A stretch of DNA of 64,000 nucleotides from Centroscyllium fabricii (taxonomy: Eukaryota): NCBI GenBank assembly GCA_051313645.2, contig JBNRSN020000025.1, positions 29,698,001 through 29,762,000 on the forward strand, read 5' to 3'. The notes beneath the pieces were generated by a model. That model was not told where the DNA came from. It did no database searches and saw only the letters and a program-made list of their open reading frames with translations. The position numbers were made by a program, and so were the translations under genes. Below are positions 1 to 30,581 of the stretch, piece by piece (within the stretch, counting starts at the first letter, position 1; every line of letters starts with the position of its first letter).

Positions 1-465
1 GGGCGTCGCTGGCAAGGCCAGCATTTGTTGACCATCCCTAATTGCCCTTGAGAAGGTGTTTTTTGTGAGCCGACTTCTTGAACCGCTGCAGTCCGTGTGG
101 CGAAGGTGCTCCCACGGTGCTGTTAGGGAGGGAGTTCCAGGATTTTGACCCAGCGACGATGAAGGATCAGCGATATACTTCCAAGTCAGGATGCTGTGTG
201 ACTTGGAGGGGAACTTGGAGGTGGTGGTGTTCCCATGCACCTGCTGCCCTTGTCCTTCGCGGTATTGGAGTTCACAATTTTGGGAGGTGCTGCCGAAGAC
301 TTGGCGACTTGCCGCCGTGCATCCTGTAGATGGTACACACTGCAGCCAAGGTGGAGGTAGTTGATGTTTAGGCTAGTGGATGAGGTACCGATCAAGCGGA
401 CTACTTTGTTCTGGATAGTATTGAGCTACTTGAGTGTTGTTGCAGCTGCACCTATCCAGGCAAAC
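1..465 (-). mobile_element. 3' fragment of a LINE (clade unresolved; same family as 25755-26385 and 54575-55380)
   Basis: Same 3' end as the RT-coding copy at 54575-55380 (ccctaattgcccttgagaagg...cttcttgaaccgctgcagtcc); degenerate RT C-terminus in ORF 186-395. Confidence 0.8.
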
Positions 466-519
466 ATTCTGTACACTGTATGCTAGATCAGTGTGACCCC
501 TTGTGTGGGGTCTAAGACT

Positions 520-1285
520 CTATCTTTAGAAAAGAGAAGGCTGAGGGGTGACCTGATAGAGGTCTTTAAAATTATGAAGGGGTTCGATAGGATTGACATA
601 GAGAAGATGTGGGGACAGGGCCGGCCTTAGGCCAATTGAACTTATTTGACCCAATGGGGCCCCGCACCCATTACTTGAAAGTCCATACTCAAAACCCTAA
701 CACCTTCAAACCAAACCTGTGTCTTATTCTTTTGAGCTGCAAAAAGGCACCAATCAATAATTAGTCTCGGGCTAGAAATGCAGGCATGGAGCAGTCATGC
801 ACAACATGACTAATTATAGCAACCTTGAAGGAGATCTGGATCACTTTACTTTCACATTGATGCTAAGGTATCATACTGGGCGCTGACTTGAGTTTAGCCA
901 GCCCTGAGTGATGTGTAATATCATATTGCTCAGGTTCCACTCTGGTCCAAATTGGGCCCCGCAATTGCTGAGGCCGGCCCTGTGTGGGGGAGTCCAAATC
1001 TAGGTGTCATCACTATAAGGCAGTCACTAATAAATCCAATAGGAATTCAGGAGAAACGTCTTTACTCAGAGAGTGGTGAGAATGTGGAACATGCTGCCAC
1101 AGGAGTGGTTGAGGTGAATAGCATGGATTAATTTAAGGGGAAGCTGGATAAACAATGAGAAAGGAATAGAAGGAGATGTTGATAGGGTGAAGTGAAGTAG
1201 GGTGGGAGGAGGCTCGTGTGGCGCATAAACACCGGCATGGACCAGTTGGGCCGAATGGCCTGTTTCTGTGCTGTACATTCAATGT
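520..1285 (+). mobile_element. CR1 LINE 3' fragment interrupted by a hAT MITE
   Basis: CR1 ORF2 end (agaaggctgaggggtgacctgatagaggtc; tttactcagagagtggtgagaatgtggaa) and CR1 tail gggccgaatggcctgtttctgtgctgta. Confidence 0.85.
616..982. mobile_element. hAT-superfamily non-autonomous DNA transposon (MITE)
   Basis: TIRs cagggccggcct/aggccggccctg; 8-bp TSD tgtgggga (608-615)/tgtggggg (983-990); the CR1 resumes after it. Confidence 0.85.
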
Positions 1286-1286
1286 G

Positions 1287-1919
1287 CAGGTTGAGCCTCC
1301 AAAATCTGGAGATCCGGACTCCGGGACGATTGGTGGCAGGGTCGTCCGGATTCCGTAAAATGTTCCGGAATCTGGACACCCTGAGGGAGACTTAACCAAA
1401 AAACATAAAATATCGCAACCTGGGCTCGGGCGTTTCCGGACTTCGGACATCAGAAACACGTTCCGAAGTCCGGAAAAACACGAAAACTGGCTCGGCCTCG
1501 GTCCCGAGGTTAGAAACATAGAAACATAGAAGATAGGAGCAGGAGTCGGCCATTCGGCCCTTCGAGCCTGCTCCGCCATTCAATGAGATCATGGCTGATC
1601 ATCCAAACCCAGTACCCCGCCCCTGCCCTCTCCCCAAATCCCTATCGAGCCTGCACCGACACATATCCCACCCTATCCCGTAACCCCACATATTCAATCC
1701 CCCTAACACTAAGGGTCAATTTATCCTGGCCAATCAACCTAACCCGCACATCTTTGGACTGTGGGAGGAAACCGGAGCACCCGGAGGAAACCCACGCAGA
1801 CACGGGGAGAATGTGCAAACTCCACACAGATAGTACCCGAGGCTAGATTTGAACCCGGGTCTCCAGTGCTGTGAGGCAACAGTGCTAGCCACCATGCCGG
1901 ATTCAGGACGCTCGACCTG
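1287..1919. mobile_element. Tc1/mariner-pogo (Tigger-like) MITE with nested SINE
   Basis: Termini caggttgagc...gctcgacctg followed by TA; same terminal type as 10485-11290 and 34887-35604. Confidence 0.75.
1511..1897 (-). mobile_element. HE1-like V-SINE, long-tail variant
   Basis: V-domain (ggagtttgcacattctccccgtgtctgcgtgggtttcctccgggtgctccgg on -), tRNA-like head and CR1-derived tail. Confidence 0.85.
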
Positions 1920-2827
1920 TAATTCTATGCAGAGCAGGGAGACCCCTTGAGTTCAGCAAACTACCGCCAAGAGTTTTCTCTGCCACTATTTTGGTTAATT
2001 GCCCAAAATGTATACATGAATGTTCTTGAAGTAACCAGATAATTACCATAGTTAGAAGGAATATCCTGCCGTTGATGGTGCTTAGGAAAAGCCTATTCAT
2101 GCATAAGGCAGCCTCTAAATCACAGATGCACATTATCACAGGGACATCAGGGCACCCACCCAGATCTGTTAACTGTCAGGTAAGGATTGTCCTCGAAAGA
2201 CTTTGAAAAGAAAATAGTTAAAACTTCTTGGATTTTTGTAGTATTGTATACTCTTAGACATGCTGCTACTGGTAGAGTAGGATTGTGGGTGAATAGGTGG
2301 GACATTGTGTACATTCATTTAAAGCAAACATATTTTAAGATGCATTGACAGAGTCATTTTGATTTCTAATTTAGTGCAAAATGCTCCTTCTGTGGACATT
2401 TCAGAGAGCTCTGCAGTAGAAGGAAGGTTAAATGACACCTTCAATTCTGACAGTCAAGCTTCTCATCAATCTCTCTCTTCTGCTGAGCTTGCCATCACTC
2501 TTCTACTTTTAAATGTATTTTTCCATTTTCTGCAATCCTATCTTACAGGCTGAATTGTTGTCCATGTGTGTATTTCGGGCAATGTCTTTTTTTTGTATGA
2601 TGTCTAATCTGGGTATGTCCCTATTTGTATACTTAATCATCCTTCAACTCTATTGCCGTGCTAAATGGAGAGGTAATCTCTGAAGGCTTTTCATTTGTGG
2701 AGTTTACTTGGATGTTAAGGAGAATACGGAGAACTTTCTTGGAATGGCACAAGCTGTTTGGCCATTATGGGCAAGTACCCAGTACCTTGCCTGGTACAAA
2801 CCAACTGCCACTTTTCCCAATAGACTG

Positions 2828-3250
2828 GTTCAATTGGTGTCACACTTGCCTCTGGCGCAGAAGGGTCATGGGTTCAAGTCCCACTCCAGAGACTTGAGCA
2901 CATAGTACTGAGAGAGTGCTGCACCTTCATTTGAGAAGTTAAACCAAGGCCCCATCTGCCTGTTTTGGTGATTCAGGTGGGTGCCAAAGACTCCAGGCGT
3001 TTGGAAAACACCGGGGAGCTCTCCCGATGTTCTGGCCGACATTCCGCCCCCCCACCTCCCACCCCTACAACTAAGAACACTAGAAATAGATTAACTGGCC
3101 ATTTATTTAATTGATGTTTGTCGGTTCATGCTGTGTTCGAAATAGCTCTGAGCTTGCTTGCATATTAACAGTGATTGCACTATAAAGTATGTGAAGCATT
3201 TTAAGACATTTCTGAGGGACGTGTTAAGTGGCCATCAAATGCAAGTCATT
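2828..3250 (+). mobile_element. Degenerate DeuSINE (SacSINE1-like)
   Basis: gggttcaagtcccactccagagacttgagcaca...gttaaaccaaggccccatctgcc; similar to the better-preserved copy at 21010-21478. Confidence 0.65.
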
Positions 3251-3820
3251 TTTACTTATGCCTATCTGGTGCCGCTGTTCCTGGTATAAATATCAGCACG
3301 GGTTCAGTACAGGGCCCACTATCCCCAGTAGCACTGCCACCTAGCTGCATGCTGAAGATTGGTTTCACAGCAGGTAAGTAGCCTCCAACTCCAATCTGAG
3401 TGTCAGTACAACTTTCAATTACATCACTGGTGCTATGCCTACCCGAACACCATGCGGGTCCAGTATTGGCACACGCCATTGTCAGTGCTGGTGCAGGTGA
3501 GTCCTGAAACGCACGGTACGGATGCCATTATTGGTACCACACTAGAGGTGCAGCACCAGATCTCCAATCCTGCTGCATTTTTGGGAAGTAAACTGGATTA
3601 AAGTCTACTCTGTAATACCAGTGACTGGCACCCAACGAAATGGGGGAACGGTGAAGCTTGCCCGTGCTTATGCAGAGATGTTTTAAAATGTATTCCCTGT
3701 ATGGTTTGGTCTATTCATGTCTTGTCAGATTGTTGCGAGTGCTATAGCAGCGATGTTGATGTCCTGTACGCGAGATCTGTTTTCTTACCAACTTTCACTT
3801 TGTCTGTTTGTGATTTACAG

Positions 3821-3982
3821 TGCAACTCTCTCTGTCAAACCTCCACTTTCACACGCTCAGAGTTTTTAGGAGCCCTGAAGCTGCCTCTCCTGACTCAGGG
3901 AAGGTGTAGTGAGACCAATCACAAAGCTGCATGCTTCTGTGCTAGTGTCACCATTAGCATCGGTGTTTCTGATTTGCTTTGA
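3821..3982 (+). CDS. Candidate alternative PLCH2 exon (first 20 codons resemble the PLCH1 post-C2 cassette; possibly terminal)
   Basis: Pyrimidine tract plus ttacag acceptor ending at 3820; phase-0 frame CNSLCQTSTFTRSEFLGALK resembles recalled PLCH1 WSPLILNPSYTILHFLGATK; no GT after codon 20; frame open to TGA at 3982. Confidence 0.35.
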   Translation, partial: CNSLCQTSTFTRSEFLGALKLPLLTQGRCSETNHKAACFCASVTISIGVSDLL

Positions 3983-4089
3983 CACACTACTTTCAACTCA
4001 TACATGGATTTGAATGTCACCCAATCCCTCTGTGCTTACCCATCTTAACTGCACTAACCCTCTGACATGCAGGTTCAGGATTTTTATTT

Positions 4090-4624
4090 TGATATGTACT
4101 GTGTACATGTTTTACAATCACAAACGGAGAATGCACTGACAGATCCAGGGTGCGATTGATAACACTAACGGCCAACTTGGTGTTAAGGGCTGACTCTGGG
4201 AAAGACAACCTCCTACCTTGGTCCAACTATATATATATCGAAAAGGGCGGAGTCCTGACCTTTGAAATCCCGTTACAGTCCCTTCAGCTGCAGGTTCAAT
4301 GTATGTTTCTTAACCTATCCAATCCGACACTTGGGATTTTTGTGGTTCTATTTGATTGGCCAAGTCAGACGTGACCTATCCACAGTCTAGGTGACGTCAC
4401 CCACCCAGTGCCAGTAACTAAATATAAGCCAAAAGGTGATTGACAGTCAGGAGAAGCTTAGATCTTCCATCAATGTCCGGCAATGATTCTTTGTCACTTG
4501 TGGGTCCTTCAACATGATTAATTACAGCAGACTTGTATGGGATCTTGTTCCATTATGGAAAGTAGTATATGTATGACAACAGGCTGTGTGTGGCTTGAGA
4601 GTGTTAACTGTGCTGAGCATTACA
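4090..4624 (-). mobile_element. Probable solo LTR
   Basis: TG...CA ends, imperfect 5-bp TSD tattt/tatat; CRE (tgacgtca), CCAAT, GC box and TATATA in promoter order on the - strand. Confidence 0.5.
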
Positions 4625-4631
4625 TATATTT

Positions 4632-5464
4632 AATGTCGCTGGGCCCCCTGCTGCTCAATGGAGGAGGTCTGTTGTTGGAGGGTGATGTTGGTGTATCTCC
4701 CCATTGCGACCCTCCAATCCAATCCTTTGATATGAAAACAGAAAATGCTGGAAACACTCAGCACTTTAGGGCACTTTTTAGTCACACTTGGGACAGAAGT
4801 TGGCTGATTCAACCAACGTTCTTCTAAAAGCCGATCAGTTGCTCTATTTGTGTTTTAGGTCACTTTTTTGGTGGGGGGTGGGGGGGTGGTTGGTTTTACA
4901 TTTCTGCTGATTCCCAATTTGCCTCAGTCCCTTTTTGAGCTGGCCATGGGTTAAAGGAAGAGCTCACCCATCTCCCCGCTGGTCTGTCGTCATCAGCAGA
5001 GCCCTGGTGCGCACAAGTTCTTGCACCGTCCCTTTGCCCACTTTGGTGGCACCCAGGCAGTTGCCATGGCATTCAGCTCTTGTCCTTGGCCACTGCGGCA
5101 CGCCACTACCCAATACAGTGACATTTACCTTCACTGATCTCACCGTGCCTCACTCACTACAGCTACAGTATTAGGGAGAGGAAGTTTTATTAGACAGTGG
5201 CGGAAAGGGAGATATTATTGCCCCCTACCTGTCCCCATTCCACCCTGTAGTTACCCCCTTTGAAGATTGGGGTGCGCCTGTATTGACCATCTAGCTTGTC
5301 ATGGAACCTCCTTGCTCTGGTCTCCAGTACAGAATGTCGCTGGGCCCACTGCTGCTCAATGGAGGGGCTCTGTTGTTGGAGGGTGATGTTGGTGTATCTC
5401 CCCATTGCGACCCTCCAATCCAATCCTTTGATATGAAAACAGAAAATGCTGGAAACACTCAGCA
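4632..5464 (+). repeat. Local direct duplication of 132 bp (4632-4763 and 5333-5464)
   Basis: Near-identical aatgtcgctgggccc...gaaaatgctggaaacactcagca in both copies. Confidence 0.9.
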
Positions 5465-6595
5465 GGTCAGGCAGCATCTGCGGAGAGAGAAACAGAGTTA
5501 ACGTTTCAGGTCGATGACCCTTTGATGTTCAGCTTCGGGATTTTGTGCTACACTGAGAGAATTTGAGAGTAGAAAGAAGTGTGTCTGGTCTGAGCCCACA
5601 TTTTTAATTGGTTAGTCCCTGAAGTAGAAGCCATGGGGCAGAATATTGGATGAGTTTACTGAAAATTGCACAACCAAATTCTTTGGGAAACTATTTCAAA
5701 AGCCTACAACCCACCCCCTGGATCTGCCTGTATATATAGATTTTTTTTTTAAACATTGGTTTTTAAAAAAAAACATAAACCTCCGGCTCTTGAATCACTG
5801 CCCTTTTGATTCAAGAATCAGTGCTTTTTATCGTCTCATAACAGCTTGGTTTTGTTTGGCTATGCCAAAGGTGCTACCACATATTTATTGGACTAACATT
5901 AACCGGATTGCCACCAGAATTCATATTGGCTGCACACTCACTTCCACCTGGACCTAACCATATGCCCTCAATGGGCTACGCCTTTGTTCCTGATCCTAAA
6001 GAGTTTCTCCCACCACCCCCACTCTTTCCCCCACCCCTCCCCTGCCCCCTTCCCTTCCCTTTAACAAGAATTCCATGTCTTCACAGGCTCTTGCAATTAT
6101 GTGAAGAAACGGGAAATCTAACCAAGGAAAAGTAGCATGGGATTGTAGGAAGAGTAAGACAGGAAGAAATTGGTGGCGATCACTGTAGTCCACCACATAC
6201 ACGGAGGGAATGATATGATAGGTCTGATGGTTGTGTCTGGGGAAAGGCTGCTTGGATCCTATCATTGGATGTCGAGGCTTTTTCTCTCTCTGTTTTCCCA
6301 GAGCAGGTGAAAGAATTTGCCAATGATCAAACTGCTAGAGTGCAAGACTCAACGGACTCCAGTAATCTTGCAGGAATATCAGGAGCAGGAAGAGGCCATT
6401 CAGCCCCTCCAGCCTGTTCCACCATTTAATTAGATCACGGATGATTTGTACCTCAACTTTATTTAGCCGCCTTTGCCCAATACCCCTTGATAACCTTACC
6501 TAACAAAAGCCGATCAATCTGAATCTTGAAAGCTCCAATTGTCCCCCAACATCCACAGCCTTTTGGGGGAGGGAATTTCAGATTTTGACAACCCT

Positions 6596-8845
6596 ATCAA
6601 AACTCTCTGGACTCAGCAAAGGTCCCGGCAGACTGGAAAACTGCTAATGTAACGCCCTTATTTAAAAAGGGTAGTACACAGAAGACTGGAAACTATAGAC
6701 CAGTTAGCCTAACATCTGTGGTTGGCAAAATGTTGGAAGTCCATTATTAAGGAAACAGTAACAGGACATTTGGATAAACATAATTTAATAGGACAAAGTC
6801 TGCATGGTTTTACGAAGGGGAAGTCATGTTTGACAAATTTGCTCGAGTTCTTTGAGGACGTAACATACAGGGTGGATAAAGGGGAACCAGTGGATGTAGT
6901 ATATTTGGACTTCCAAAAGGCATTTGACAAGGTGCCACACAAAAGATTATTGCTCAAGGTAACAAATTACGGGATCGGGAGTAATATTCTGGCATGGGTG
7001 GAGGATTGGCTTTCTAACAGAAAGCAGAGAGTTGGGATAAATGGTTCGTTCTCAGACTGGCAATTAGTGACGAGTGGTGTTCTGCAGGGGTCAGTGCTGG
7101 GACCCCAACTCTTTACAATCTATATTAATGATTTGGAAGAAGGGACCAAGTGCAACAGATCAAAGTTTGCGGCGATACAAAGATGGGAGGGAGGGTGATG
7201 AATGAGGAGGACATTAAAAACCTGCAAAAGGACATAGATAGGCTAAGTGAGTGGGCAGAGATTTGGCAGATGGAATATAATACTGGAAAGTGTGAGGTTA
7301 TGCACTTTGGCAGGAAAAATAATAGAGCGAGTTATTATCTTAATGGAAAGAAACTGGAAAGTACTTCAGTGCAAAGGGATCTGGGGGTCCTGGTGCAGGA
7401 AACACAAAAAGTTAGTATGCAGGTGCAGCAGGTGGTCAGGAAGGCCAACGGAATGTTGGCTTTTATTGCTAAAGGCCCTGTCACACCTAGACGTTTTAGC
7501 CAGCGTATGCAAATTTGGCTAAAACGCTGAATTTTTGACTTTTTTTCAGTTTTGGGCGTAAATAGCGTATTCATAACGTATGCATAACGTATTAGTAACG
7601 TACACAGAACGTATCGATAACTTACAGATAACTTATACCAACGAATGCTTAGCGTGTTGTCGGCGTTCACAACTTATGCCCAACGATAGTCTAACGTATG
7701 CATAGTGCGCGGCAGCGTATCGCCGACGTTTTAGATAAATTTTGATACGTTGGCATACTAAATCGTCAAGTTGTGACAGGGCATGACAGGGGCACAGGTA
7801 AAGTGTGTTCAACGATCGCCTAACGTGCCTACAACGTATGGCCAGCGTATGCGGAACGTGTGAGTCATACGCTGGATAAGTCGAGATTTTTTGTGCATGC
7901 TCAAAAATTCTCGACTTACTCGAAGTACAACGACGTATGCAACGTATGCCCAGCGTTCTCGTAACGTACCCATAACGTTTCCGACGTAACCCAACGTTTT
8001 AGCCAAATTTGCATACGCTGGCTAAAATGTCTAGGTGTGACAGGGCCTTAAGGGGATTGAGTATAAAAACAGGGAGGTCTTGCTGCAGTTGTGCAGGGTA
8101 TTGGTGAGACCACACCTGGAATACTGCGTGCAGTTCTGGTGTCCATATTTAAGAAAAGGCAGACTTGCTTTCGAGGCAGTGCAAAGAAGGTTCACTCGGT
8201 TAATCCCGGGGATGAGGGGGTTGACATATGAGGAGAGGTTGAGTAGATTGGGCCTCTACTCATTGGAGTTCAGAAGAATGAGAGGCGATCTTATTGAAAC
8301 ATGTAAGATTGTGAAGGGGCTTGATCGGGTGGATGCGGTGAGGATGTTCCCAATTGTCGGTGAAACTAGGACTAGGGGGCATAATCTTAAAATAAGGGGC
8401 TGCCCTTTCAAAACTGAGATGAGGAGAAGCTTCTTCACTCAGAGGGTGGTAGGTCTGTGGAATTTGCTGCCCAAGAGAGCTGTGGAAGCTACAACATTGA
8501 ATACATTTTTAAAAGAGATAGACAGTTTCCTAGAAGTAAAGGGAATTAGGGGTTACGGTGAGCAGGCAGGTAAGTGGACATAAGTCTAGGTTCAGATCGG
8601 CCATGTGATCTCCTGGACGAGTTTTGATCGCCTAGATGGGTCGGAGAGGAATTTCCCAGATTTTTTCTCCCAAATTGGCCACTGTTTTTTTTAATCTGGT
8701 TTTTCGCCTCTCCCGGGTGATCACATGGGTTCGGGCGGGATGGAGAGTGAAAGTAGATTTGAGGTTAGGATCAGATCAGCTATTGTTGAATGGCGGAGCA
8801 GGCTCGAGGGGCCGATTGGCCTACTCCTGCTCCTATTTCTTATGT
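6596..8845 (+). mobile_element. 5'-truncated CR1 LINE with RT domain, frameshifted and interrupted by a MITE
   Basis: ORFs 6722-7198, 7150-7530 and 8080-8583 encode CR1 RT motifs ([44 protein letters not shown]); CR1 3' UTR follows. Confidence 0.95.
7473..8048. mobile_element. PIF/Harbinger MITE
   Basis: ~55-bp TIRs (aggccctgtcacacctagacgttttagcc...) and TAA TSD (7470-7472/8049-8051); removal restores the CR1 sequence. Confidence 0.92.
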
Positions 8846-9329
8846 TCGATCCAGTTCTTTTAACATTTTAAACACCTCAATCTGATCACCCCTCAATCTT
8901 CTAGACTCAAGAGTCATGTGCTTTCTTTACTTTCTCGCGCCAACCTGCACTACCCATCACTCACCTGCTAAGAAGGTGTATGGGTGACCTAATGTCTGGC
9001 ATGTGCCAGTGCTGTTGTGAAACTGGTCCCAAGGAGATCCGAAGGTGATGGTGGCTGATCCTACCACCTATACTTCCCGCCCAGTGGAGAAACACCCGGC
9101 CCCGCACAGTATCCTCCTGCAGCGACAAGGTTGATGTCAGGAACTCGACTTGTGGGCAATCTCACATGCTAGCCCAGGTCCTGCCATCCTGTGCCACAAC
9201 ACGTTGGGGCTTTAACGCAATGTGCCAACACGTCATCCACAGCACAGATTTGGGTAACGGCAAATGTTTGGTCTACTGACCGGTCCCAAAGGTGCTTGTG
9301 TATTTCATTCTTGTGCAAGAACTGAGCAG

Positions 9330-9775
9330 TTATACCTATGAGGAAAGGCTCAAGAGGCTGGGGCTCTTTTCTCTAGAAAAGAGAAGGCCTGATGACCTGA
9401 TCGAGGTCTTTAAAATTTTGAAGAAGTTCGCTAGGATAGACAAAGAGAAGATGTTTCCACTTGTGGGAGAGTCCAAAACTAGGGGCCATAAATCCAAGAT
9501 ATTCACTAATAAATCCAATAAACAATGCAGGAGCAACTTCTTCACCCAGAGAGTGGTTAGAATGTGGAGCTTGCTACCACACGGAGTAGTTGAGGCGAAT
9601 AGCACAGATGCCTTCAAGGGGAAACTAGATACATACACGAGGGAGCGAGGAATAGAAGGATATGCTGATGGTGTTTATGAAGTAGGGTGGGAGAGGCTCG
9701 AACCCTACATTGGCACCAACCAGTTGGGCCGAATGGCTCGTTTCTGTGCTATACATTCTATGTAATTCTATGAGT
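9330..9775 (+). mobile_element. CR1 LINE 3' fragment
   Basis: ORF 9292-9765 YEERLKRLGLFSLEKRR...FFTQRVVRMW plus CR1 tail. Confidence 0.9.
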
Positions 9776-10669
9776 TAGTAAATTGTCAGTGAACTTTATC
9801 TGACTACACCAGCACCAAGAGAGCAAGGCTTGCTTTATCAATCCATGTTAGAGAGTTTGTAAAATAAAAAGAAAGTCATCTTTGTTTGGTAAATTATTTT
9901 CTCTCTCTAATGCACGTTGCCTGGAGATTAAAGACAGATGATCCCTGAAGCTAGGAATTGTCGGACTATAACTGTTCTGGTGATGTGGTCCTGGAATACT
10001 GGGAGCTGGATTCCCTGCTTCCCCCCGCCCCCCCCCCCCCAAACCCCCATACAAGTCGATCTGGAATTCTAGGTTTCAACTCAAGGCTAGGTTTTATCAC
10101 AAGATGTATAGAATATAAAAAGCCCAGAAGTAATGCTGAGCCTATATAAAACCCTAAGCAAATGTGTGCAGCATTGGGTTCCACGCGTAGGATGATACAA
10201 TCCAGATTCACTGAGATGCTGCGAAGAAATGCGAATACAAAGAAAGACTTGAAAAATGGGCTCTTTTATTCATTAGAATAATGCAGGTTATGGGACAATG
10301 TGACAGAAGTGTTTTAAAAAATGAAAGTAGGCACAGGGTAGATATAAGCTGATTGTTTCCAGTAGTTTAGGGGGTGAGGAACGAGGAGGGCCATTGATAA
10401 AAGACTAAATGTAAAATGATTTAAAACAGAGGGCAGGAGAAACTGCTTCACACAATGGGATAGATCTTGACTTCAATAGAAATGCGGGTTGAGCACCGGT
10501 AATCCGGCACCCGATGGTCCGGCAGCTTCGGTGGTTCGGCACGATTGGAAACCGGCGCTCTTCATTTTGCAGAGCTGCCGCTCGACGGCGCCACCATTTC
10601 CCGCGAAGGGTCAGCGAGCGCCGAAGGTGTCAGGCGTTTGGGTTTCTGTTTTTTAGGTTTTGTATGTGT

Positions 10670-10880
10670 TCTATCCCCGGGCTCCCTCCCGGGGAGTGTT
10701 CCACCGCGCGCTCCGGGCCCCGGGGAGTGTTCCACCACGCGCTCTGGGTCCCCGGGCCCCGGGGTGTGTGCTACTGCGCTCTCCGGGCCCCGGGGAGTGT
10801 TGTACCGCGCTCTCCAGGCCCCGGGGAGTGTTCTACTGCACGCTCCGGGCCCCGGGGAGTGTTCTACCGCGCGCTCCCCC
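10670..10880. repeat. ~31-bp GC-rich tandem repeat (ccgggccccggggagtgttctaccgcgcgct), ~6 copies
   Basis: Direct inspection. Confidence 0.9.
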
Positions 10881-10883
10881 CGA

Positions 10884-11205
10884 ACATAGAAACATAGAAG
10901 ATAGGAGCAGGCGTAGGCCATTCGGCCCCTTCGAGCCTGCTCCGCCATTCAATGAGATCATGGCTGATCATCCAAACCCAGCACCCTGTCCCTGCCTTCT
11001 CCCAATATCCCTCGATTCCTATCGAGCCACATATCACACCCTATCCCCGTAACCCCACATATTCAATCCCCCTAACACTAAGGGTCAATTTATCATGGCC
11101 AATCAACCTAACCCGCACACCTTTGGACTGTGGGAGGAAACCGGAGCACCCGGAGGAAACCCACGCAGACACGGGGAGAATGTGCAAACTCCACACAGAT
11201 AGAAC
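10884..11205 (-). mobile_element. 5'-truncated HE1-like SINE, long-tail variant
   Basis: Same body and tail as 1511-1897. Confidence 0.85.
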
Positions 11206-11656
11206 ACGAGGCACCTTCAGTGGTTCGAAATTTTCAGTGGTCCGGCACCGGCCTGGTCCCGAGGATGTCGGATTAACGGTGCTCAACCTGTAATAGTCGG
11301 GAGTGATGTAACACAGGCTGCCGACTCGCTACCACCCGTTTTACACTATCGCACAGAGTCAGGATTGACCTCAGAGTTGTGAGGCTGTGGAATTCACTTT
11401 AGTGGCTGAGGCAGAAATTACGTCAACAACCCGGATTAGATTGGAGAGGCGGATGAAGGAAAAGGGGGTTAAAGGGAAACGGGAAGAGGGCAGGTAAATG
11501 TGATTAGAACTATAGGCTGGTGTGGAGGGTAACTGCCGGGATGGACTGGTTGGGCCGAATGGCCTGTTTCTGTGTTGTGTGTGTGTATATATTGGCCAAA
11601 GGCTGCATTCCTGGTCTCAGCCCAAGACATCTGGATGAGACATCAAGCAATGGTAA

Positions 11657-12214
11657 TGGCCCTGTCACACCTAGATGTTTTAGCCACAGTATGCAAATTT
11701 GGCTAAAACGCTGGGTTACGTCAGATACGTTATGGGTACGTTATGCATACGTTAAGAGCACGCTGGCATACGCTGGCCATAAGTTGCATAAGTCGTTGTA
11801 CTTCGAGTAAGTCGAGAAATTTTGAGCATGCACAAAATTTCTCGACGTATCTTGCGTATGATTCACATGTTCCGCATACGCTGGCCATACGTTGTAGGCA
11901 TGTTTGGCGATCGTTGACACACGTCGACACACGTTACTTGTAAGTTAGTCATAAGTCAAAAGACGTCGAGATAATTTCTAAGCGTACCCGGAACTTATTT
12001 CTAACCTATGAGTAACGTGCTTTGAACCTATGTGTAACGTATCTCCAACGCATATTGACGACCACAGAACTTACTGAACGTGTTTGCTACCGTATAAAAC
12101 GTTATACGTCCAACTCGTTATGAATACGCTATTAAATGCCCAAAGTTCAGCGTAACCCAGCGTTTTAGCCAAATTTGCATACTGTGGCTAAAACGTCTAG
12201 GTGTGACAGGGCCA
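11657..12214. mobile_element. PIF/Harbinger MITE related to 7473-8048, opposite orientation
   Basis: Same long TIRs (ggccctgtcacacctaga...); flanked by TAA/TTA. Confidence 0.9.
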
Positions 12215-12773
12215 TTAGATATTTTCCCCTGGAGGAAAGTTTAGAGGCTGAGACAACCGGTCCGCTGACAGTGGAAGCCATTTGCTGCTGAAACCCTCAT
12301 CCAGGCCTTTGTTACCTCCAGACTCGACTAGTCCAACGCTCGCCTGAACCTCTCCCTCCCACTTCGCACCTTCTGTAAACTTGAGTTTATCCAACACTCT
12401 GCTGCCCCTGTGCTCGCTGACCTCCATTGGCTCCCGGTCCAGCAACGCCTCGGTTTTAAAATTCCCACCCTCATGTTTTCAAATCCCTCCATGGCCTCAC
12501 CCCCCTCCCTATCTCTGTAACCTCCTTCAGCCCCACAACTCCCCGTGATCTCTGCACTCCTCGAATTCTGGCCTCTGGCGCATCCCCGACTTTCATCGCT
12601 CCACCATTGATGGCGTGCCTTCGGACGACTAGGTCCTAAGCTCTGGAATTCCCTCCCTAAATCTCTCTACCTCTCTCTCCTCCTTTAATGTGGAGGTGCC
12701 GGTGTTGGACTGGGGTGGACAAATGCAAGAAGTCACACAACACCAGATTATAGTCCAACAGTTTTATTTTAAA

Positions 12774-12811
12774 TCACAAGCTTTCGGAGCTTTTGCCCCT
12801 TCGTCAGGTGA
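12774..12811 (-). ncRNA. Minimal type I hammerhead ribozyme
   Basis: UCAC-CUGACGA-A-GGGGC-AAAA-GCUCC-GAAA-GC-UU-GUGA on the - strand. Confidence 0.8.
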
Positions 12812-13098
12812 AAGAGAGAGACTGACTTAAAGAACGCACATATGTGATGATGGGAGAAATCCGATATCTCCCACATCTCACCTCAGTAGAGATAGACACA
12901 CAAAGGCTTATTAACATATTTTAAGTGTTTCATTTAAACATAGCATCTCTAGAGAGAGATAACAATGTGGTCTCTCCAATTGTTTCACATCACACCTCAG
13001 CTGAGGGACATCAAAGCAATCAAAGGTGTTCCAACATATCAGCCAGCCTGAGATCAAAGGGTGCAGTCACAAAGGGTCTTTAAGTCAGTCTCTCTCTT

Positions 13099-13136
13099 TC
13101 ACCTGACGAAGGGGCAGAAGCTCCGAAAGCTTGTGA
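13099..13136 (+). ncRNA. Minimal type I hammerhead ribozyme
   Basis: UCAC-CUGACGA-A-GGGGC-AGAA-GCUCC-GAAA-GC-UU-GUGA: intact core, stems I and II, palindromic AAGCUU at stem III. Confidence 0.8.
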
Positions 13137-14311
13137 TTTAAAATAAAACTGTTGGACTATAATCTGGTGTTGTGTGACTTCTTGCATTTCTCCTCCTTTA
13201 AGACTCTCCTTAAAACTCGCCTCTTTGACCAAGCTTTTGGTCACCTGTCCTAATATCTCCTTATGTGGCTCAGTGTCACATTTTTGATAAAACTCCTGTG
13301 AAGCGCTTCGGGACGTTTTACTACATTAACTGCGCGATATAAAGGCAAGTTATTGTTGCTGCTGTTTGTAGAGTGGAACTAGCAGGGGTCTGAAAGCAGG
13401 ATATGTGACTAGTCTCCAGACTGTGGCTGAGAGGCGCCGGAGGAACTGGGGAAACGAGAAGAATGATTTACAGCTCACCAAAAATTCAAAAAACTCAGCG
13501 AAGCCAAATTTTATATCAAGTAGAAGCCAGCAGCAGTCAGAACTTGGCTCTCAGTCAGACAGAAAGCCTATAATACTGGGTCCTATCTCCCATTGTGCTC
13601 CCTGTTCCCTATGCTTCCTCCTTACCCCTTCCTTGGAGTTTCGTAAAGATGTGGAGATTTCAAAAAGGTTTGTATTCATAATATTTTCTTTAGCCCAAGT
13701 CATCAACGCCAGGCTCTTTGCTACACTCTGGGGTTAACTTTGGCTTTGTATTTATTAAAATATTTAAATTACCCTATGAGCGTAAAACAATCAACAAGTG
13801 AATCCAAAGTACCTCGAAATTGCCAACTCCCGTGGTTCATTTATGCCTCATTTGAATATTGGCATCTAATTAGTCAATGGGATACCCTCCTGTTCGCTCT
13901 AAGGACCTCCTATTAGACTTCACCACAGACCCTACAATAGTGTTATTATCCTCAGGAAGAAATATCCGCTTAAGCCAAAATATTTCAATGTTGCATAACG
14001 CACTCCTCGGGCGACGGTCTTAATTCATCATCACCTCAAATTGCTCCCACCAGTGACAGACCTGTAACCCACAGCAGCTCAGCCTCAGTGTTACACTGCT
14101 CAAAATGTTCTCACTTGGCACAAACCAGGTTTGAATAACAGACTCTCTAATTGTACTGCTCAGCGTTTTTCACAGTCCAAACATTTCACACACCCACTGC
14201 TCCCTGTACTGAAACCCTAGTCACAGCACTGCTAACAGACAGGCTGGTGTGCTATAGACAACTTAAAGGTAACAATAGTATGGGATTAAAAGGTGTGATT
14301 GAATATCATTG

Positions 14312-14512
14312 ATGTGTGTGTTTTGTATGTGTGTGTGTTTGTGCGTGTGGTGTGTGCGTGTGCGTGTGTTGTGTTTGTGCGTGTGTAGGTGTTGTATTTG
14401 TATGTGTGTTTATGTGGGTGTGTGCATGTTTGTGGGTGTGTGCGTGCGTGTGTTTGTATGTGGGTGTGCGTGTGTTTGTGGGTGTGTATGCGTGTTTGTG
14501 TGTTGCGTGTAT
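14312..14512. repeat. Degenerate (TG)n microsatellite
   Basis: Direct inspection. Confidence 0.95.
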
Positions 14513-14575
14513 ACCATGTTGACAATCTGTTGCATGATGACTGACTTAATCTGTGGTCTTGTCCAACATTCAGTG

Positions 14576-14750
14576 GGGGTCATTTTTAACTTTGTGCGAT
14601 AGTGTAAAACGGGCAAAAGCGAATCAGCAACCAATTATACCTCACACACACTTTGAAGTCAATGGAAATAAAAATGGGGAGAGATGTAAAGTGAGCTGCT
14701 GACTCCCTGTCACCTGTATTACACCATCGCACTAAGTCACAATTACCCCC
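14576..14750. mobile_element. Short palindromic MITE (relatives near 17460-17550, 19789-19980, 21670-21840, 62933-63100)
   Basis: Imperfect inverted arms ggggtcatttttaactttgtgcgatagtgtaa...ttacaccatcgcactaagtcacaattacccc. Confidence 0.6.
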
Positions 14751-15714
14751 ATTCTGTCTGTGTTGAGCCAGACAGGATGTGTAGACAGATTCTGTGCAAT
14801 ATTCAACAGGAACCTTGTGGGGTGGGAGGGGGCGGTGAAATCAGCCAGGCCCCTCTATACAGCGACAGTATGCGTGTTTGGACAGTGGACGAGCACAGGG
14901 CTCGGCTCAGCTGTCAGTACTCTGCTGCCTCTTGTCTGGGCTCACACATAACAATTGGCCGGTTAGCTGAGGTACCTCGGAGCTGTCGGCAGATGTGGAC
15001 CTGCATCCCAGCTCTTTCAAAGAGCCGGCACAAGTACGAGGGGCCGAATGGCCTCCCTCTGTGCTGTACAAATTTTTGATTCAAAGGACAGGAGGGTGGA
15101 AAGCTAGGGGTGAGGGTCTTTAACCAGTTAGAGTGGGAATTTAAATTAGAAATGTAGAAAACCAGGAGCAGGCCACTCAGCCCTTCGAGCCTGCTCTGCT
15201 ATTCAATATGATCATGGCTGATCCTCTATCTCAATACCATAGTCCCGCTCTCTCCCCACACAATCCTGCTGTCATCAACACATTAATATATTCTGCACCG
15301 GGGTGCGGGAATGTGCTCGAACTCTCCGCCCCTTTATTGGGGCACCTGGGTTTGAATGCTACCCAGACAGAAAGTAGGGAGGTACCTTTTCCACACCAGT
15401 CCCCAGTGGTGCCTTACTGACAGCACCAGTGCATAACTTGAGTCATATTAACGTTGATGCTACACTAGTCAGTGTGAATCACAGGGACACTGATGCTACG
15501 ATAATAATGCACAGGGAGGACCCACTGACCCTGGCATATTGATAGCCAGTGTGAATCACTGTCAGTAACACCGCCAATGCTGTGCTACCACATAACGAGA
15601 CACTTTGACACCTTGCTACTGTTGCTCCTTGAAATATCCTCCTGAGGATCCCATCCAATCGAACTGTTGCACTGAGCCCAATATAATTTTATTAAAGATT
15701 ACGGCAACTTGCAG

Positions 15715-16080
15715 CAGAGAAGGTTAAGGGGAGATTTAATGGAGGTTTTCAAAACCATGAAGGGTTTCGATAGAGTAAATAAGGAGACACTGTTTCCACT
15801 GGCAGGAGGGTCGATAACCAGAGGTCACAGATTTAAGGTCAAAGAGCCAGAGATTAGATGAGAATTATTTTTACACAGCGAGTTGTTGTGATCTGGAACG
15901 TGCTGCCTGAAAGGGCGGGGGAAGCAGATTCAATAGTAACTTTCAAAAGTGAATTGGAGAAATACATAAAGGGGGAAAATACTTGCAAGGCTATGGGGAA
16001 AAGGGATGGGAAATGGAACTAATTGGAAAGCTCTTTCAACGAGCCAGGCACAGGCACGATGAGCCAAATGGCCTCCTTCA
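15715..16080 (+). mobile_element. CR1 LINE 3' fragment
   Basis: agcagagaaggttaaggggagatttaatggagg...atctggaacgtgctgcctgaaaggg plus CR1 tail. Confidence 0.8.
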
Positions 16081-16187
16081 TTAGGCCCAAATTCAAAATG
16101 GTCCGTTGTTAGATTTGGGGTCACCTTGAGGCCAAGATTGATTCTTAAAATGGGGTATTTTTTTGTTTTTGTTTGTCTTTCCCGCAG

Positions 16188-17136
16188 ATCAAGCAAGTCA
16201 TGGGACTAAAGGGCCTTTTCCACAGAAATCCAAAGCAGGCTTCGCTCGACAGTCATGTTGCTGTACGGCTCACTCACAAACACTCTTTTAGCAGCCACAT
16301 CCTCCGCAGGACTGCCAGTGCCCCCACCAAAGGGCACCAGAAGAGCAAAAAGGGCTTTCCGCAAATCGTTCTAGATACCAAAGACTGCAGTTCAGAGGGA
16401 GCGAGCGAGTCTGACGACACCTCCCAACCTCGGTTTGAGCAGGAGGCCGAATGTGCTGTGGCTGCTCCGGAAGGTGCTGAACGGGCTGGCACCGACGGGG
16501 AAGTGCAGGCGGAGGCCTTTCAAGGTAAGGGGACGAGCATGGGGTCGGGGGAAGGTCAGAAGCCACGTGCGACTAATTTGCCAACGGGTGTGGTGTTTAG
16601 CGAGCCTTTAAGGCGGGCGCACCGAGTGCGCATACTGGACCCCGAGGAGCAGAGGCAAGGCGTGTTTACCAGGTGTGCCATAAATGGCTGCGGTAGGATT
16701 GGCATAGCCACCAATTGCATGAAATGCGTCATTGGTTCTAGGGAGAGCCCAGATCTAGAACGCAAGTGGAAGGAGCGTGTCCACAAGCCAGATGCCCTGG
16801 CAGCGGCCAAGCGGGCACATCAGCGCGGTTCCTCAGAGAACGAACGGTTAATTCCCGCGGGGCAGGCGGTCCAATGCCAACCCAAGCAGAGGTGGCGACG
16901 CCAGATCGTCCACGGTGTCGGCTGCAGCAGCGGAGAGGTCGACAAATTGGAGGCCGCCAGCAAGGGCTGCAACTCGCCCGAGTCTGAAAGCCTCGAGGGT
17001 CTGAGCGGTCTGGAGCACTCGTATCACTTGGCGCAGAACCCTCAGAAGTATCCGGGCACCCTTCAACGTGAAATGAACTCTTTGTTTGTACAAAAGATGC
17101 AGGAAATCCGAAGCAAGTCTCCAATCTTTTCCACGG
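16188..17136 (+). CDS. PLCH2: Phospholipase C eta 2, penultimate coding exon (long form; internal alternative donor after 16524)
   Basis: Acceptor tttcccgcag|ATC; encodes IKQVMGLKGLF...SLDSH...ILRRTASAPTK, NCMKCVIGS and PGTLQREMNSLFVQKMQEIRSKSPIFS, matching recalled mammalian PLCH2; phase-1 donor G|gtaaga at 17136/17137 fits the acceptor at 28740. Confidence 0.92.
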
Positions 17137-18494
17137 GTAAGACCTGAATGGACCGTTTTGTTGACCCATTTTTTGCTTTGTAGATCGTCCTGTTCCTCTG
17201 GCCAGCATCTCTGTGTCCAGCCGAACCTAAACCCTCTGACCAACCTAGAACACCACGCCAACTATAGATTTTGCCATCCGTTTTCCCTTGAGAAAACCTG
17301 CAGAGTGTTGAAGTGGAATGCTAAGTTGGAGCCACTTATTTTCTAGTTTCTTGTGCCCTGCCTGCCCAGCGTTTCAAAGGGTTATTTTCTTTCTTTCGTT
17401 CAACATGGTTCACGCCAACCAAATGTCTAGGATTTAGATTGCCCCAGGCTTTGGAGGATGAGATCTAAATGGTCTCCTTAAAACCATCTTGGGCGATAGC
17501 GCAAAATGGGCGACCGCATCGGCAGCCCGTTTTACACTCTGCCCGAGTCTCTCTTAGGTACCAGGATGGTCCTCCTTACCTTTGACCTCCATTGTTCCCA
17601 AAGTGATGAGGCAATGTCGTGCCCAGTAACGGATAGCCAAAAGATAGCCAGAGATAGAAAAAAGGGAACCCTGTAAGTGGGGGAAAGCACTGAACGGTAC
17701 AGACCAGCAAGGTCCTACGTTTGACCCCTGGCCTCTGCTGACATAGCTGACCTCAGTTGGCGCAAAGGGCTTGCAGATTAGCCTGGGTGCCCCTGGCTGA
17801 GGGTGGCATAATAGTGCTCGTGACGGAATGCGGCGCTGGCCTCATTATCCATCTAACCCGAACCCCATGTTCACCCCATCAACAATTCTGAAAAGGTGGG
17901 ACATGCTCGATAGAAGCAAACTGTTCCAGTAGTTGAAGGGTCAGGGACGAGGGACCATTGATACAAGATTAAATATAAGACATTCAGAACAGTGCGCAGC
18001 AGACACAGCTTTACACACAGAGAGTTCTGAGGCTGTGGAATTCATTTCCAGGGTTAATGGTTGAGACAGAAACATTCCAGATTGGATTGGATAGGCGGAT
18101 GATGGAAAAGGGGTTGAAGGGAGCAAGGTGGGTAAATGTGATTCGACTTATTTGCTCAGGTAGAGGGTAAAGGGACTGGTTGGGCCAAATGGCCTATTTC
18201 CATGATGTAAACTATTTATTTCTAGATATGAATTAGGAGCAGGAGTAGGCCATACGGCCCCTCGAGCCTGCTCCACCATTCAATAAGATTCAGGCTATAA
18301 CGAGAAAATGTGGAGATAGAGACTAAATCAGACCAGGGAGAAGAGCAATTTAGATAAATGTAGGGAAGATGGTTTTAAAAAAGTTTGTACATTTTTAAAA
18401 GTTGAGTTTCCCCACTTCCACTCGCCTTGACCTCCCTACACCACTCACCCTCTGTGGATCAAAATGTGGCGTATGCAGGAGTTAGCAATGACTT

Positions 18495-21940: not shown

Positions 21941-22632
21941 ATTTCAATTCAATTCAATTCAAGTTTTATTGTCATTGCAGATTACTAGTACAATACAACG
22001 AGACGAAGGCTCGACTCTCCCAAGAGTAGTGCAAATAAATTACATGCAAATTGCATACAGTAAAGTACATTATCAGGCGTGCAGGTACCGAAGTTTATTT
22101 TCAGAGTTCAGGAGGCTGACAGCCCTGGGGAAGAAGCTGTTCTGAAATCTAGTCGTGCGGGTGCGAATTGCTCTGTAGCGTCTCCCGGAGGGCAGGGGGG
22201 CGAACAGACTGTGGCTGGGGTGTGTGGGGTCTTTAATAATGTTCAGCGACCTCCGTAAGCAGCGTTTGAGGTAGATGCTTTCCATTGACGGTAGCTGTGT
22301 ACCAGTGATTCGTTGGGCAGTTTTGACTACCCGCTGCAGGGTTTTCCGGTCCGAGATAGTGCAATTTCCATACCAGACAGTGATGCAGCTTGTCAGTATG
22401 CTTTCGATTGTGCAGCGGTAGAAGTTGGGAGTGAAGAGGGAGTAGAGGAGGGGGCTCAGCACACAACCTTGTGGGGCCCCCGTGTTCAGGGTAAGTGGGG
22501 GGGAGGTGAGGTTGCCTAACTTCACAGACTGTGGTCTGTTGGTTAGGAAGTCCAGGGTCCAGTTGCAGAGGGAGGTGTTCAGGCCGAGGGTGAGGAGTTT
22601 GTTAGACAATTTGCTGGGGACGATGGTGTTTC
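21941..22632 (-). mobile_element. Rex1/Babar LINE fragment with internal deletion
   Basis: ORF 22073-22609: [33 protein letters not shown] fused to [22 protein letters not shown]; (TTGAA)n tail. Confidence 0.85.
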
Positions 22633-24836: not shown

Positions 24837-24993
24837 GAGATTCTTGCAAAAGTTAGCAAGCAGCAAGCCTAATCCCAATTGAAGAGCCAGTGGCAACCAG
24901 CGACAAGCTGATGGCCTTGAAATGAAGCCCTTGGCTAAGTCACTTCCAATTCGCTTCCAGTCAAACCCAAGGAAGCAGACCTGAAGTAGTCTA
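24837..24993 (+). pseudogene. Decayed intronic duplicate of part of the PLCH2 terminal exon (29823-29978)
   Basis: Hand alignment gives ~77% nucleotide identity; reads EILAKVSK/SKPNPN*...KPLAKSLPIRFQSNPRKQT* with a 1-nt insertion and two stops. Confidence 0.85.
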
Positions 24994-27750: not shown

Positions 27751-28740
27751 TTCAACACTGGAACAGCTTCTGATGTCAAGCTAAATTCTCAGTTTGCTCC
27801 AATAGCCCAAGTGTTTCCACTTACGAATCAAAACTGACTACTGACTGCATTGACTGGCTTATTGAGTTCCATAGACAGCTTGTGGGGAAGGACTATCCAG
27901 ATCAATGACATTTTGAAATTGAAATTGATGAAGTAATTGATTTATGAAAGATCTTTAATAGAGCCTGTGTCTTTCAGAAAAGAATACAAATTGCTTTTAT
28001 CAAAGGCACTCTGTGTCATGTTATCCACAAAAAAACAACTTTATATTTCAAGAATTATTGGGCTGGTAGAGCGCTCACTGGAGTGAATGTGCTTTGAGTA
28101 TCAGTAGTCACGGTGTGTGGGAAGGTTAGTATGTCTTGAAGGCACTGGGCAAAGTTAAAATGTCCGTTGTTCTAGTCAGTCAATGTTGTGCTGGGTTTAT
28201 GAGGCTGGCTTGGTGTTGCAGACCCTGCCTGGGATGTGGCTCAGTCACTCACAGTCAGGTTGCCAGTGGGAGAATAGCTCAAGACTGTTGCTTTCGCTCC
28301 CTCGCTCGTTACCCCTGCTGGAAGCGCACGTGCTCAGCTGTGTGGGGCAGCCACAGCGTTTGTCTCGGCCCTGATGTCCCCCCTGCCCCTCCCCCCCCCC
28401 GCGGTGGGAAGCCCATCGACACCCGCTCACCAGGCCCACTCGTGAAACAAAGCCGATTGAACAAGACGACCGCTGTCACCTATGGAGCCAATCCCTAGCG
28501 TGAGCAACAGCCTTGAGAAGAGAGGAATGATAAACGGGACAGAAAAAAGAATATTTGGGAACTTTTACGAAAACTTACGTTTTAAGTCCTAACTCTAGTG
28601 TCAGGAAAAAGCAATTTGACTTTTTGGCCTCGGCTGCCTTCCATTCATTGACCTGATCCCCACACCGTGATTATATGATGGAGTATGATGAAGCTTGAAT
28701 GATTTTTATTGATTGTTTTCATCTCCTCTTCTCCTTGCAG

Positions 28741-30581
28741 GTGACCAGCCATTCTCACATCCAGTTCCAAGCGCTCCCACGCACACTCTTGAAACCATTA
28801 CTGAAGAATCTATGCATTTCGAGGATAGAACTTGCACTGACTCCCAGTGGATGTCCTCATCTACTGTGAGTAGATCCAGAGAAGAAAGCACCAACTCCGA
28901 GGAACGTCTAGTTCCAGAAACCAGCCCGTCGCCACCACAACCCAAGAAGGTCCCGACCGATAATGACCGAGCAATAAAGGCCCCAGAGGCTTCTATTAGT
29001 GAGAAACAATTGGGAAATGGAGCTGTTCTCCTAGGTATGGATCTCCTCACAGGAGGCAACAAGCAAGAGGAGACCCTTCATGCTCATGTTTGTCTTGCAT
29101 CAAGTCTCCACAAAGACTCTCAGGGCGGTGACAGACCTTCCCATTTTTCTGATGACGGCACAAATTCGTGCACTGCCACCAATCACTCCACAACCCAACT
29201 GAGCTCTTCTCAAAACCCAAAAGATTCCTCATTGGCACCAAATGGTCAGTGCAGGGAAAAAGCTGAAGTCCTCGGTGGTCATCTGGCTCAACTTGAAGCT
29301 TTACCCACTGGAGCCTCAGCCGATAATCCTGTTCAGGAAGCACCTGGTGAAAGGTTGGACAGCACAGAGTTAGCCGAATCCCAGAAAAGCCCTACTATTG
29401 ATTCAATCGCCAGTTCTATACCACAAGGTGCTCAAAACGGATGTGACAAAAATACCCCTGGTTGTCCTATTGGGAATAATGTTCACCCTGATATGGTGCA
29501 AAGCGTTAGTTGTGATGGGCATCTTATTCAAAGTCAACATCGATTGTTGGTAACTCCTGTCCAACTATGCACATCTCCAGTGCCTGCAGTGTCATCAGAT
29601 GTGACCATAAATGATAGAATCTGGTGCAAATTGGATTCTGGGAGCCACCGGGATAGTATGTCCTCGTCATCCAGTATGTCATCAAATGACACGGTCATCG
29701 ATTTGTCGTTGCCCAATTTGGCTCGGAAGAGTTTATCCGACCTCAGCAGCAGGCAGAATGAAACCTTGGAAGGGCTTTTGATAGATAAACGGATAAGGCC
29801 TCGATCAGCTACAACTGGTCATGAAATGCTCGCTAAAGTTAGCAAAAGCAAGTCCAATCCCAATTTAAGGTCTGATGGCGACCAGCAACAAGTTGATGAC
29901 CTTCTGCCGAAGCCCTTAGCAAAGTCATCGCCAATTCCCTTCCAGTCAAACTCAAGGCGACACACCTGGAGTAGGCTGTACATGGATAGCCTCAAACAGT
30001 CTTCCCCAACTCTCAAATCAATAACGCAAAGCAAAAAGGTAGCGGACAGTCCGAGCAAATCAAAAAGCCTGGGTGACCTGACCTCCGACGATATCATGCC
30101 CAGCTTTGACAGCAAGTACAAGAGCATCAGTCGGAACTTTATCACAAGGCCCATGCGTGAGCAGCGCAGGGCGGCCGGCATGAAGAGACCCACCCAGGAC
30201 AATTTGACGGAGCAGCTGAAGAGGATCACGAGCTTCGAGCGGGAGAATGACATCACCTCCCCCACCGCCGGTCAGCCTCCGGAGACCGAGGAGACCAGCC
30301 CAGTCGTCCTTCGCAGATCTTCGTCGAGGAGCCAAAGCCGGGTGCGGTACATTGCCAACCGGGCGAAGCAGGCGCAGGAACGGCAGCGGCTGTGGAGCCT
30401 GGGGCAGAACAACCCGGCCAGCGTGCTGGAAGAGAGGGGTAACCCGGAGGGGGCGTGCTCTGTCCCCAAGAGCATTTGCACGGACATGGCCCTGCCCCTG
30501 CTCCATCGAGTCGCAGAGGAGACCAAGGTCCCACCAGCCATTGGCAGCGAGGCGGAGGTCTTCTTCATGCTAAAACTTTAA
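28741..30581 (+). CDS. PLCH2: Phospholipase C eta 2, terminal coding exon
   Basis: Acceptor ctccttgcag at 28740 (phase 1); motifs HRDSMSSSSSMSSNDTVIDLSLP, SKSKSNPNLR, SKSKSLGDLT, LTEQLK, RRSSSRSQSRVR, EERGNPEGACSV and hydrophobic C-terminus FFMLKL match PLCH2. Confidence 0.95.

Follow-up and report, generated by a model that had tools for sequence, protein, structure and literature searches.

The 500-bp element at positions 12689–13188 of the window (the whole stretch of DNA analysed here, 64,000 nt of the Centroscyllium fabricii contig JBNRSN020000025.1) is very probably a young insertion of a Neptune-like Penelope-like element (PLE) family that has reached a very high copy number in this shark, and which arrived by the standard PLE route. 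The element has a target site duplication (TSD), inverted arms, a one-sided tail of 32–33 nt, hammerheads and a non-coding, high-copy body, a layout which is the published signature of PLE insertions, and in which the arrangement of hammerheads on opposite strands has also been described already. That both strands carry a hammerhead follows from the 5' inversion usual for PLEs and involves no special design; for sharks, the element provides a clean, textbook case of PLE insertion.

The TSD, TCTCCTCCTTTAA, occupies 12676–12688 and 13189–13201 as a direct repeat (+ strand) that is identical at 13/13 positions, the last base of the left copy being ambiguous with the 3' end of the element. The target of the insertion was an older high-copy host repeat (12400–13360, +), delimited from contigs and paralogue alignment, one paralogue of which (61945–61533) aligns over the empty join with 75% identity, and contigs leaving at 12688 into the host sequence that follows the TSD number 633 in run X1 and 571 in run X3. 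Since both the paralogue and the contigs display the empty site, the 13-bp repeat recognised in the original prediction is a true TSD. The inverted arms, put there at about 110 bp, measure 112 nt each (12722–12833 and 13077–13188) with one mismatch, located in loop II. A further feature, unmentioned at that stage, is an unpaired stretch at the left end only (12689–12721, - strand) which has no partner on the right and which, by arm comparison, corresponds to the PLE "tail" described in the parts of PMC8557442 and PMC3846280 covered here.

The element thus comprises two copies of unequal length. The long copy (12689–13078, -; 390 nt, 43% GC) includes the non-coding family body, the hammerhead and the 3' terminus and is collinear with another copy at 49925–50237; its body upstream of the hammerhead (12834–13078, -) has high depth throughout and a fixed-looking 5' start at 13078. 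The second copy (13077–13188, +) is inverted and 5'-truncated to 112 nt, and is joined to the long copy via a 2-nt microhomology at 13077–13078. The arms are identical to each other at 111/112 positions, compared with 89–94% identity to the other two window copies, and both carry a minority variant at 12747/13163, the other base being the family majority in run X1 (74–75%). This shared variant, together with an arm identity far above that to other copies, points to one source for both arms, and fold-back (self-)priming or gene conversion could also yield arms that are nearly identical. Separately, the body contains an internal duplication of about 114 nt (12872–12918, 12986–13040) that is missing from the 50-kb copy.

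A complete minimal type I hammerhead is found in each arm, as originally claimed: the long copy holds one at 12774–12811 (-), with a cut predicted between 12778 and 12777, and the other, sense to PLCH2, is at 13099–13136 (+), where it is predicted to be buried in the arm duplex. The cores CUGACGA are at 12807 (-) and 13103 (+), stem I has 4 bp, stem II has 5 bp, and GAAAGCUU is also present; the order in either arm is CUGACGA, an extra A, the 5-bp stem II closed by G10.1–C11.1, GAAA, GCUU and the 4-bp stem I. The + strand cut was expected after 13132, a position which, judging from the motif, would be the right one. Helix III is absent, and the palindromic 15.1–16.1 tetramer for dimer pairing is AGCU in this family and ACGU in a second family within the window. 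A palindrome is therefore indeed present, but the dimer model uses these 4 nt and not the 6-nt AAGCUU initially proposed, which would pair A14 with U17. A U at position 17 makes a weaker cleavage site.

The CUGANGA and GAAA boxes, the extra base before 10.1 and the G10.1–C11.1 pair are present in 3/3 complete window copies. A loose core pattern matches the window five times, where 0.76 ± 0.78 matches are expected by chance and 0/100 shuffles reach five, and stem II has at least four pairs in 4/5 of them. When six motifs were aligned (three of this family, the metagenome loci L001 and L002 described below, and the second window family at 48267), a small and partly pattern-selected sample in which most changes come from the second-family row, 66/66 cells were paired and 7/11 pairs varied on both sides, compared with 0/500 shuffles. 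The pattern used to select L001 and L002 fixed the core and stem II, leaving stem I (including the change in L002) and the central palindrome free; left out of the alignment were L003, which is identical to L001, and the 35-kb copy, which is without the core. With all cells paired and two-sided pair changes, we take the motif to be a real PLE minimal hammerhead, and Rfam gave no hammerhead match at E ≤ 5. The relative at 50005–50041 had been credited with a different stem II and loop that still pair: its stem II does differ and yet pairs, with a 3-nt loop, but by one stem II change only (G.U to A-U).

The minimal hammerheads of metazoan PLEs were defined by Cervera and de la Pena (2014; PMC4209133), who, in the parts of the paper covered, report that monomers are not cleaved and that dimers are cleaved to a low extent, together with opposite-strand pairs 100–700 bp apart interpreted as truncated PLEs. 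As in the hammerheads described in those parts, the motif is of type I, lacks helix III, has an extra base between 9 and 10.1, a G10.1–C11.1 pair, a palindromic 15.2–16.2 and a helix I of 4–5 bp, and it differs from the schistosome version given there (helix II of 7–8 bp) in its 5-bp helix II. Sharks are not named in the text parts and two supplementary files of PMC4209133 that were covered.

The connection to PLE coding sequence comes from three metagenome loci found with the pattern for this family's hammerhead, L001, L002 and L003, which going by their records are not from sharks; scans of viral and prokaryote collections with the hammerhead pattern gave no match. In L003 the hammerhead is preceded by a domain that combines a CxxC finger with GIY-YIG-type motifs, and while L003 itself has no Pfam match, its relatives carry RT, many of them also GIY-YIG, with the finger typical of Neptune/Nematis PLEs in 105/120 and one of them coming from a catshark. 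L001 has an inverted RT fragment beside the hammerhead (Pfam RVT_1, E 2e-5) and L002 a GIY-YIG tail about 240–270 nt upstream of it. A profile of 120 PLE proteins matched L001 with E 5e-62, L003 with 1e-46 (partly by construction) and L002 with 3e-4. Outside the hammerhead, similarity to the window is confined to L002, which is 76–80% identical to the arm over about 75 nt. The PLE link proposed in the original prediction is thereby borne out, this hammerhead type adjoining Neptune-like RT/GIY-YIG sequence in metagenome contigs.

Against the element and its 50-kb relative, the same profile reached E 0.65 or worse (i-E 0.65–1.9), and tblastn with the 120 PLE queries produced two weak matches only in the element (E 0.017 and 0.047). 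The element is therefore non-coding and its terminus is of PLE type, and the lack of an ORF stated beforehand agrees with this result, neither the 120 proteins nor their profile matching significantly. One of the two, a match of a GIY-YIG tail to the + strand middle (E 0.017, 1/120 queries), was rejected, the profile being unsupportive and the body oriented oppositely. A related shark protein exists, the Neptune-like P0156; used as a query it matched one locus, in a bacterial MAG, where a PLE fragment shows no link to the family, and none in viral contigs. Two further observations concern the metagenome data: L004:1–1533, from a short contig in a bacterial MAG, is an RT fragment of Neptune-like type and is probably host contamination, and L002:500–1000, where a PLE 3' end and the hammerhead lie in AT-rich, bacterial-looking DNA of a contig with a coverage of 0.8, is probably a chimeric assembly.

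Three copies of this family are present in the window. The second, missed in the original prediction, is another inverted insertion (35075–35270) flanked by an 11-bp TSD (35075–35085, 35260–35270); the copy itself (35086–35259) has perfect 69-nt arms, forming a 138-bp palindrome centred at 35156/35157 inside stem II, and it has the same short end and a tail of about 28–32 nt on the right, with the catalytic CUGA box absent. Rfam miRNA matches at 35081–35232 were dismissed as the palindrome only, their scores being far below gathering. The third copy (49925–50237, -), more diverged and single-armed, is about 313 nt long and has an intact hammerhead (core 50037–50009); no TSD was found for it. 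Its body aligns with the middle of the element with a score of 85, the best of 300 shuffles being 38, and this alignment makes it possible to orient the long copy, which begins at 13078 and proceeds on the - strand to 12689, leaving the + arm as the inverted, truncated extra. The 12689–13078 copy and the 50-kb copy share their first base, even though the alignment included 60 bases upstream of it. An inverted 5'-truncated arrangement is thus seen in 2/3 window copies, with TSDs of 13 bp and 11 bp.

Contigs from 4 of the 22 listed runs were compared with 12340–13540. The summed contig depth of run X1, which is not a copy number, is 0.9–2.1 million over the body compared with 11–18 over the unique flank; run X3 gives a comparable picture, in X5 the repeats are covered and the unique flank is not, and X10 is thin. 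The RNA runs contain only 5–16% of the sequence words, and small shares of this kind (X13, X14, X17–X20) are no evidence. Depth declines from the 3' end of the element towards its 5' end. The family is accordingly of very high copy number, body included, with very roughly 10^4–10^5 copies. At the tail end, 595 X1 contigs leave into mixed flanks (agreement 0.39–0.43), past a short common extension with an ATG. In these other copies the ATG is situated 4 nt beyond the 3' end of the present copy, in a context of A at position -3 and G at position +4, and is possibly the start codon of an ORF in tandem master copies. Joints were also collected, 15 of them listed (1634 more exist), and among the 15 listed, 12 connect the left arm to the right arm across shorter middles, which indicates that inverted insertions with varied centres are routine; the deepest joint listed is centred on loop II, and the joint 12790–13120 occurs in 11, 7 and 3 contigs of three runs.

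The insertion route may be outlined by analogy with in vitro work on an anole PLE. The RT/GIY-YIG protein would nick both target strands 13 nt apart, each nick would prime a cDNA, the two start sites being separated by about 33 nt close to the RNA 3' end and thus producing the tail, one cDNA would reach 390 nt and the other halt at 112 nt, and the two would be joined by the 2-nt microhomology, with repair creating the TSD and both hammerheads being carried along as passengers from the pLTR. In that work (Frangieh et al. 2024; PMC11167929) the PLE protein cleaves the two target strands and extends each of them, and cDNA begins at two nearby internal sites, the gap between which equals the genomic tail, hammerhead cleavage not being required. 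The element resembles this Anolis PLE (PAc) in having a hammerhead near the 3' end of the insertion, a tail explicable by two RT start sites, and a structure in which both target strands may have been cut and extended; in contrast, PAc belongs to the Poseidon clade and has an ORF starting at the hammerhead, whereas no open frame leads from the hammerhead of the element and its linked proteins are Neptune-like. Additional support comes from the second window copy, which repeats the short end, the tail and an 11-bp TSD.

Genomic insertions of the same form have been described by Arkhipova et al. (2013; PMC3846280) and Craig et al. (2021; PMC8557442, Fig. 2 legend), where the portions covered mention an inverted copy, a one-sided tail of 30–40 bp and palindromic junctions, PMC3846280 giving an inverted pLTR, a 31-bp tail and a TSD of 8–10 bp. 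The element shares with these insertions, as presented in those portions, the inverted 5'-truncated copy, the one-sided tail, the short TSD and palindromes where the inversion is joined, and differs from them in having no ORF between the arms, a 13-bp TSD and a body that may have a fixed 5' start. Several points count against the PLE reading: neither the collection scans nor the P0156 query gave a linked locus with an autonomous partner of the family, L001–L003 are by their records not shark loci, the depth figure is not a copy number, the priming model comes from another species and would apply here by analogy, the 13-bp TSD exceeds the 8–10 bp of the rotifer examples, and the shared 5' start is drawn from two copies.

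As regards the template, we lean slightly towards a short non-coding unit mobilised in trans, ranking it above the 3' end of an autonomous copy, which is a possible source of the insertion but not the preferred one. The spacing in L002 keeps this truncated-autonomous reading alive, since the 200–270-nt non-coding stretch before the hammerhead may be a 3' UTR. The non-autonomous nature asserted in the original prediction appears plausible given the shared 5' start of two diverged copies and the non-coding high-copy body, but the support these sequence features lend it is modest. Short non-autonomous PLEs are known, Chlamys MRC1 among them (covered parts of PMC8557442) as well as elements in heliconiine butterflies (PMC6685494); the shark element is likewise short and non-coding, with the PLE 3' ends in common, but belongs to another clade and host, and its non-autonomy would derive from two copies.

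More tentatively, the element might be full-length and belong to a SINE-like, dispersed family of non-autonomous PLEs that has a fixed 5' start of its own, numbers very roughly 10^4–10^5 copies in this shark and is carried by a Neptune-type partner; stem II would then also serve as a fold-back point, in many cases determining the inversion centre. The stem II centre is suggested by the 35-kb copy and by the joint 12790–13120 among the joints listed. If this is true, many introns would acquire long and nearly perfect dsRNA hairpins from such insertions. A search of the unit's first 200 nt with a loose pattern found no Pol III B box.

The original prediction had described the family as retrozyme-like, and it is improbable that the element is the monomeric offspring of a non-LTR retrozyme, in which case a 390-nt unit would exist elsewhere in head-to-tail arrays, be cut by dimeric hammerheads, circularise and be reinserted by a PLE enzyme. 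Retrozymes, in the parts of Cervera and de la Pena (2020; PMC7229834) and of Li et al. (bioRxiv 10.64898/2026.07.22.740005) covered, are head-to-tail tandem repeats yielding circular RNA. The short, non-coding, low-GC character of the element, its type I hammerhead and its PLE relationship are shared with the non-LTR retrozymes described in those parts of PMC7229834, a unit of 313–390 nt with 43% GC (390-nt copy) fits monomers of about 150–450 nt and low GC, and the common 5' start of two copies also agrees; furthermore, the covered parts of the bioRxiv study report retrozymes in one chondrichthyan genome with a mean consensus of 363 bp. However, the window copies are dispersed and either inverted or single, head-to-tail tandem with hammerheads on one strand being seen in 0/3, copies neither start nor end at the cut site, and the hammerhead, devoid of helix III, is the minimal PLE type. 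The contigs at the tail end enter mixed flanks (agreement 0.39–0.43) and not the unit again, none of the 15 joints listed goes back from one unit end to the other, and the unit folds no better than shuffles (z -1.6 and +0.1); in the window, the retrozyme-like description lacks its defining feature, the head-to-tail tandem. A MITE-like DNA transposon that has long terminal inverted repeats and carries a hammerhead-like motif by chance would account for the size of about 500 bp, the non-coding sequence, the long inverted ends, the TSD and the high copy number, but is extremely improbable and already largely refuted, as the ends are made asymmetric by the tail of 32–33 nt in 2/2 inverted copies, centres and TSD lengths (13, 11) differ between copies, one copy is single-armed, and the motif shows covariation as well as a link to PLE coding sequence.

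The host gene was identified by homology, PLC motifs giving no match. The ORFs 16149–17147 and 28713–30581 (+) are the last two large exons of shark PLCH2: one, 3.0 kb downstream of the element, has approximate limits of 16188–17138 (+) and 83–96% identity to shark PLCH2 proteins, and the last coding exon, with an approximate start, lies at 28740–30581 (+; 76–84%). The preceding C2-domain exon is absent from 1–16200, and the intron would therefore be longer than 16 kb, with its 5' end outside the window. The placement of the element inside a PLCH2 intron is consequently supported by the exons downstream on the + strand, but, the upstream exon lying beyond 1–16200, it is from these that we infer the intronic, + sense position. 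In the last intron, 24841–24981 (+) is 52–53% identical to about 45 residues of the PLCH2 C-terminal region, possibly, from its sequence, an old duplication of exon sequence.

When the full + transcript is folded, the arms form an unbroken 112-bp helix in which the mismatch becomes G.U (-274 kcal/mol, z -20.7), and imposing the hammerhead fold on the full element carries a penalty of about 69 kcal/mol, compared with 1–2 kcal/mol for the isolated motifs. Unit folding, by itself, is not better than that of shuffles. Two hammerheads cofolded without constraints failed to adopt the active dimer, a result that says little either way. Minimal hammerheads require a partner on the same strand, and the 64-kb window contains no + strand partner of this family, the + strand hammerhead at 48267 having a different palindrome (ACGU) and being located past the final coding exon of PLCH2. 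It is therefore unlikely that PLCH2 pre-mRNA is cleaved, and the capacity to form dsRNA, the other effect originally suggested, accords with the predicted pairing of the arms. The likely product in PLCH2 pre-mRNA would, according to the folding model, be an intronic dsRNA, and because the 112-bp helix would block the sense hammerhead, the element probably amounts to an intronic hairpin with a near-neutral effect. By analogy with the inverted repeats of other animals, which are substrates for RNA editing, this hairpin is probably edited as well.

The proposal that the sense hammerhead cleaves PLCH2 pre-mRNA, and that it regulates the gene, could draw on an intact core sense to PLCH2, on the 11 modelled pairs all being kept across the six aligned motifs and on the conserved intronic hammerheads known in amniotes from partly covered sources, but it has next to no probability. 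In addition to the folding cost and the lack of a partner in the window, transcription reaches the complement before the hammerhead, the insertion is a young one among very many, and published minimal hammerheads, as far as the sources were covered, are uncut as monomers, cut at low levels as dimers, or require the PLE protein. What is present here is a minimal motif in a young high-copy insertion, in contrast with a domesticated intronic hammerhead of the RECK type, in which a canonical motif is conserved across species at a single locus. Nothing indicates a role for PLCH2.

An expansion of PLEs in whale shark introns is reported in the covered part of 10.1101/443036, and the literature searches brought up no paper on this shark family. 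As a young, high-copy family with a TSD, a tail and a variable inversion centre, it offers material for studying how PLEs build inverted ends, and also for asking how sharks handle long intronic dsRNA.

Other mobile sequences were observed in the window. A second minimal-hammerhead family is represented at 48254–48360 (+), with A-U at 10.1–11.1, the palindrome ACGU and a fully compensatory stem I, and by 3' fragments at 4735–4763, 5436–5522, 51644–51721, 51940–52015 and 59042–59119; a degraded 3' piece of this family (50238–50345) abuts the 5' start of the 50-kb copy on the same strand. An LTR retrotransposon with long open frames is located at 38468–42548 (-), with zinc knuckle, protease, RT and integrase recognised by Pfam, and RT fragments (Pfam RVT_1), probably belonging to LINEs, are found at 6713–7198 (+), 22073–22630 (-) and 52197–53360 (-).
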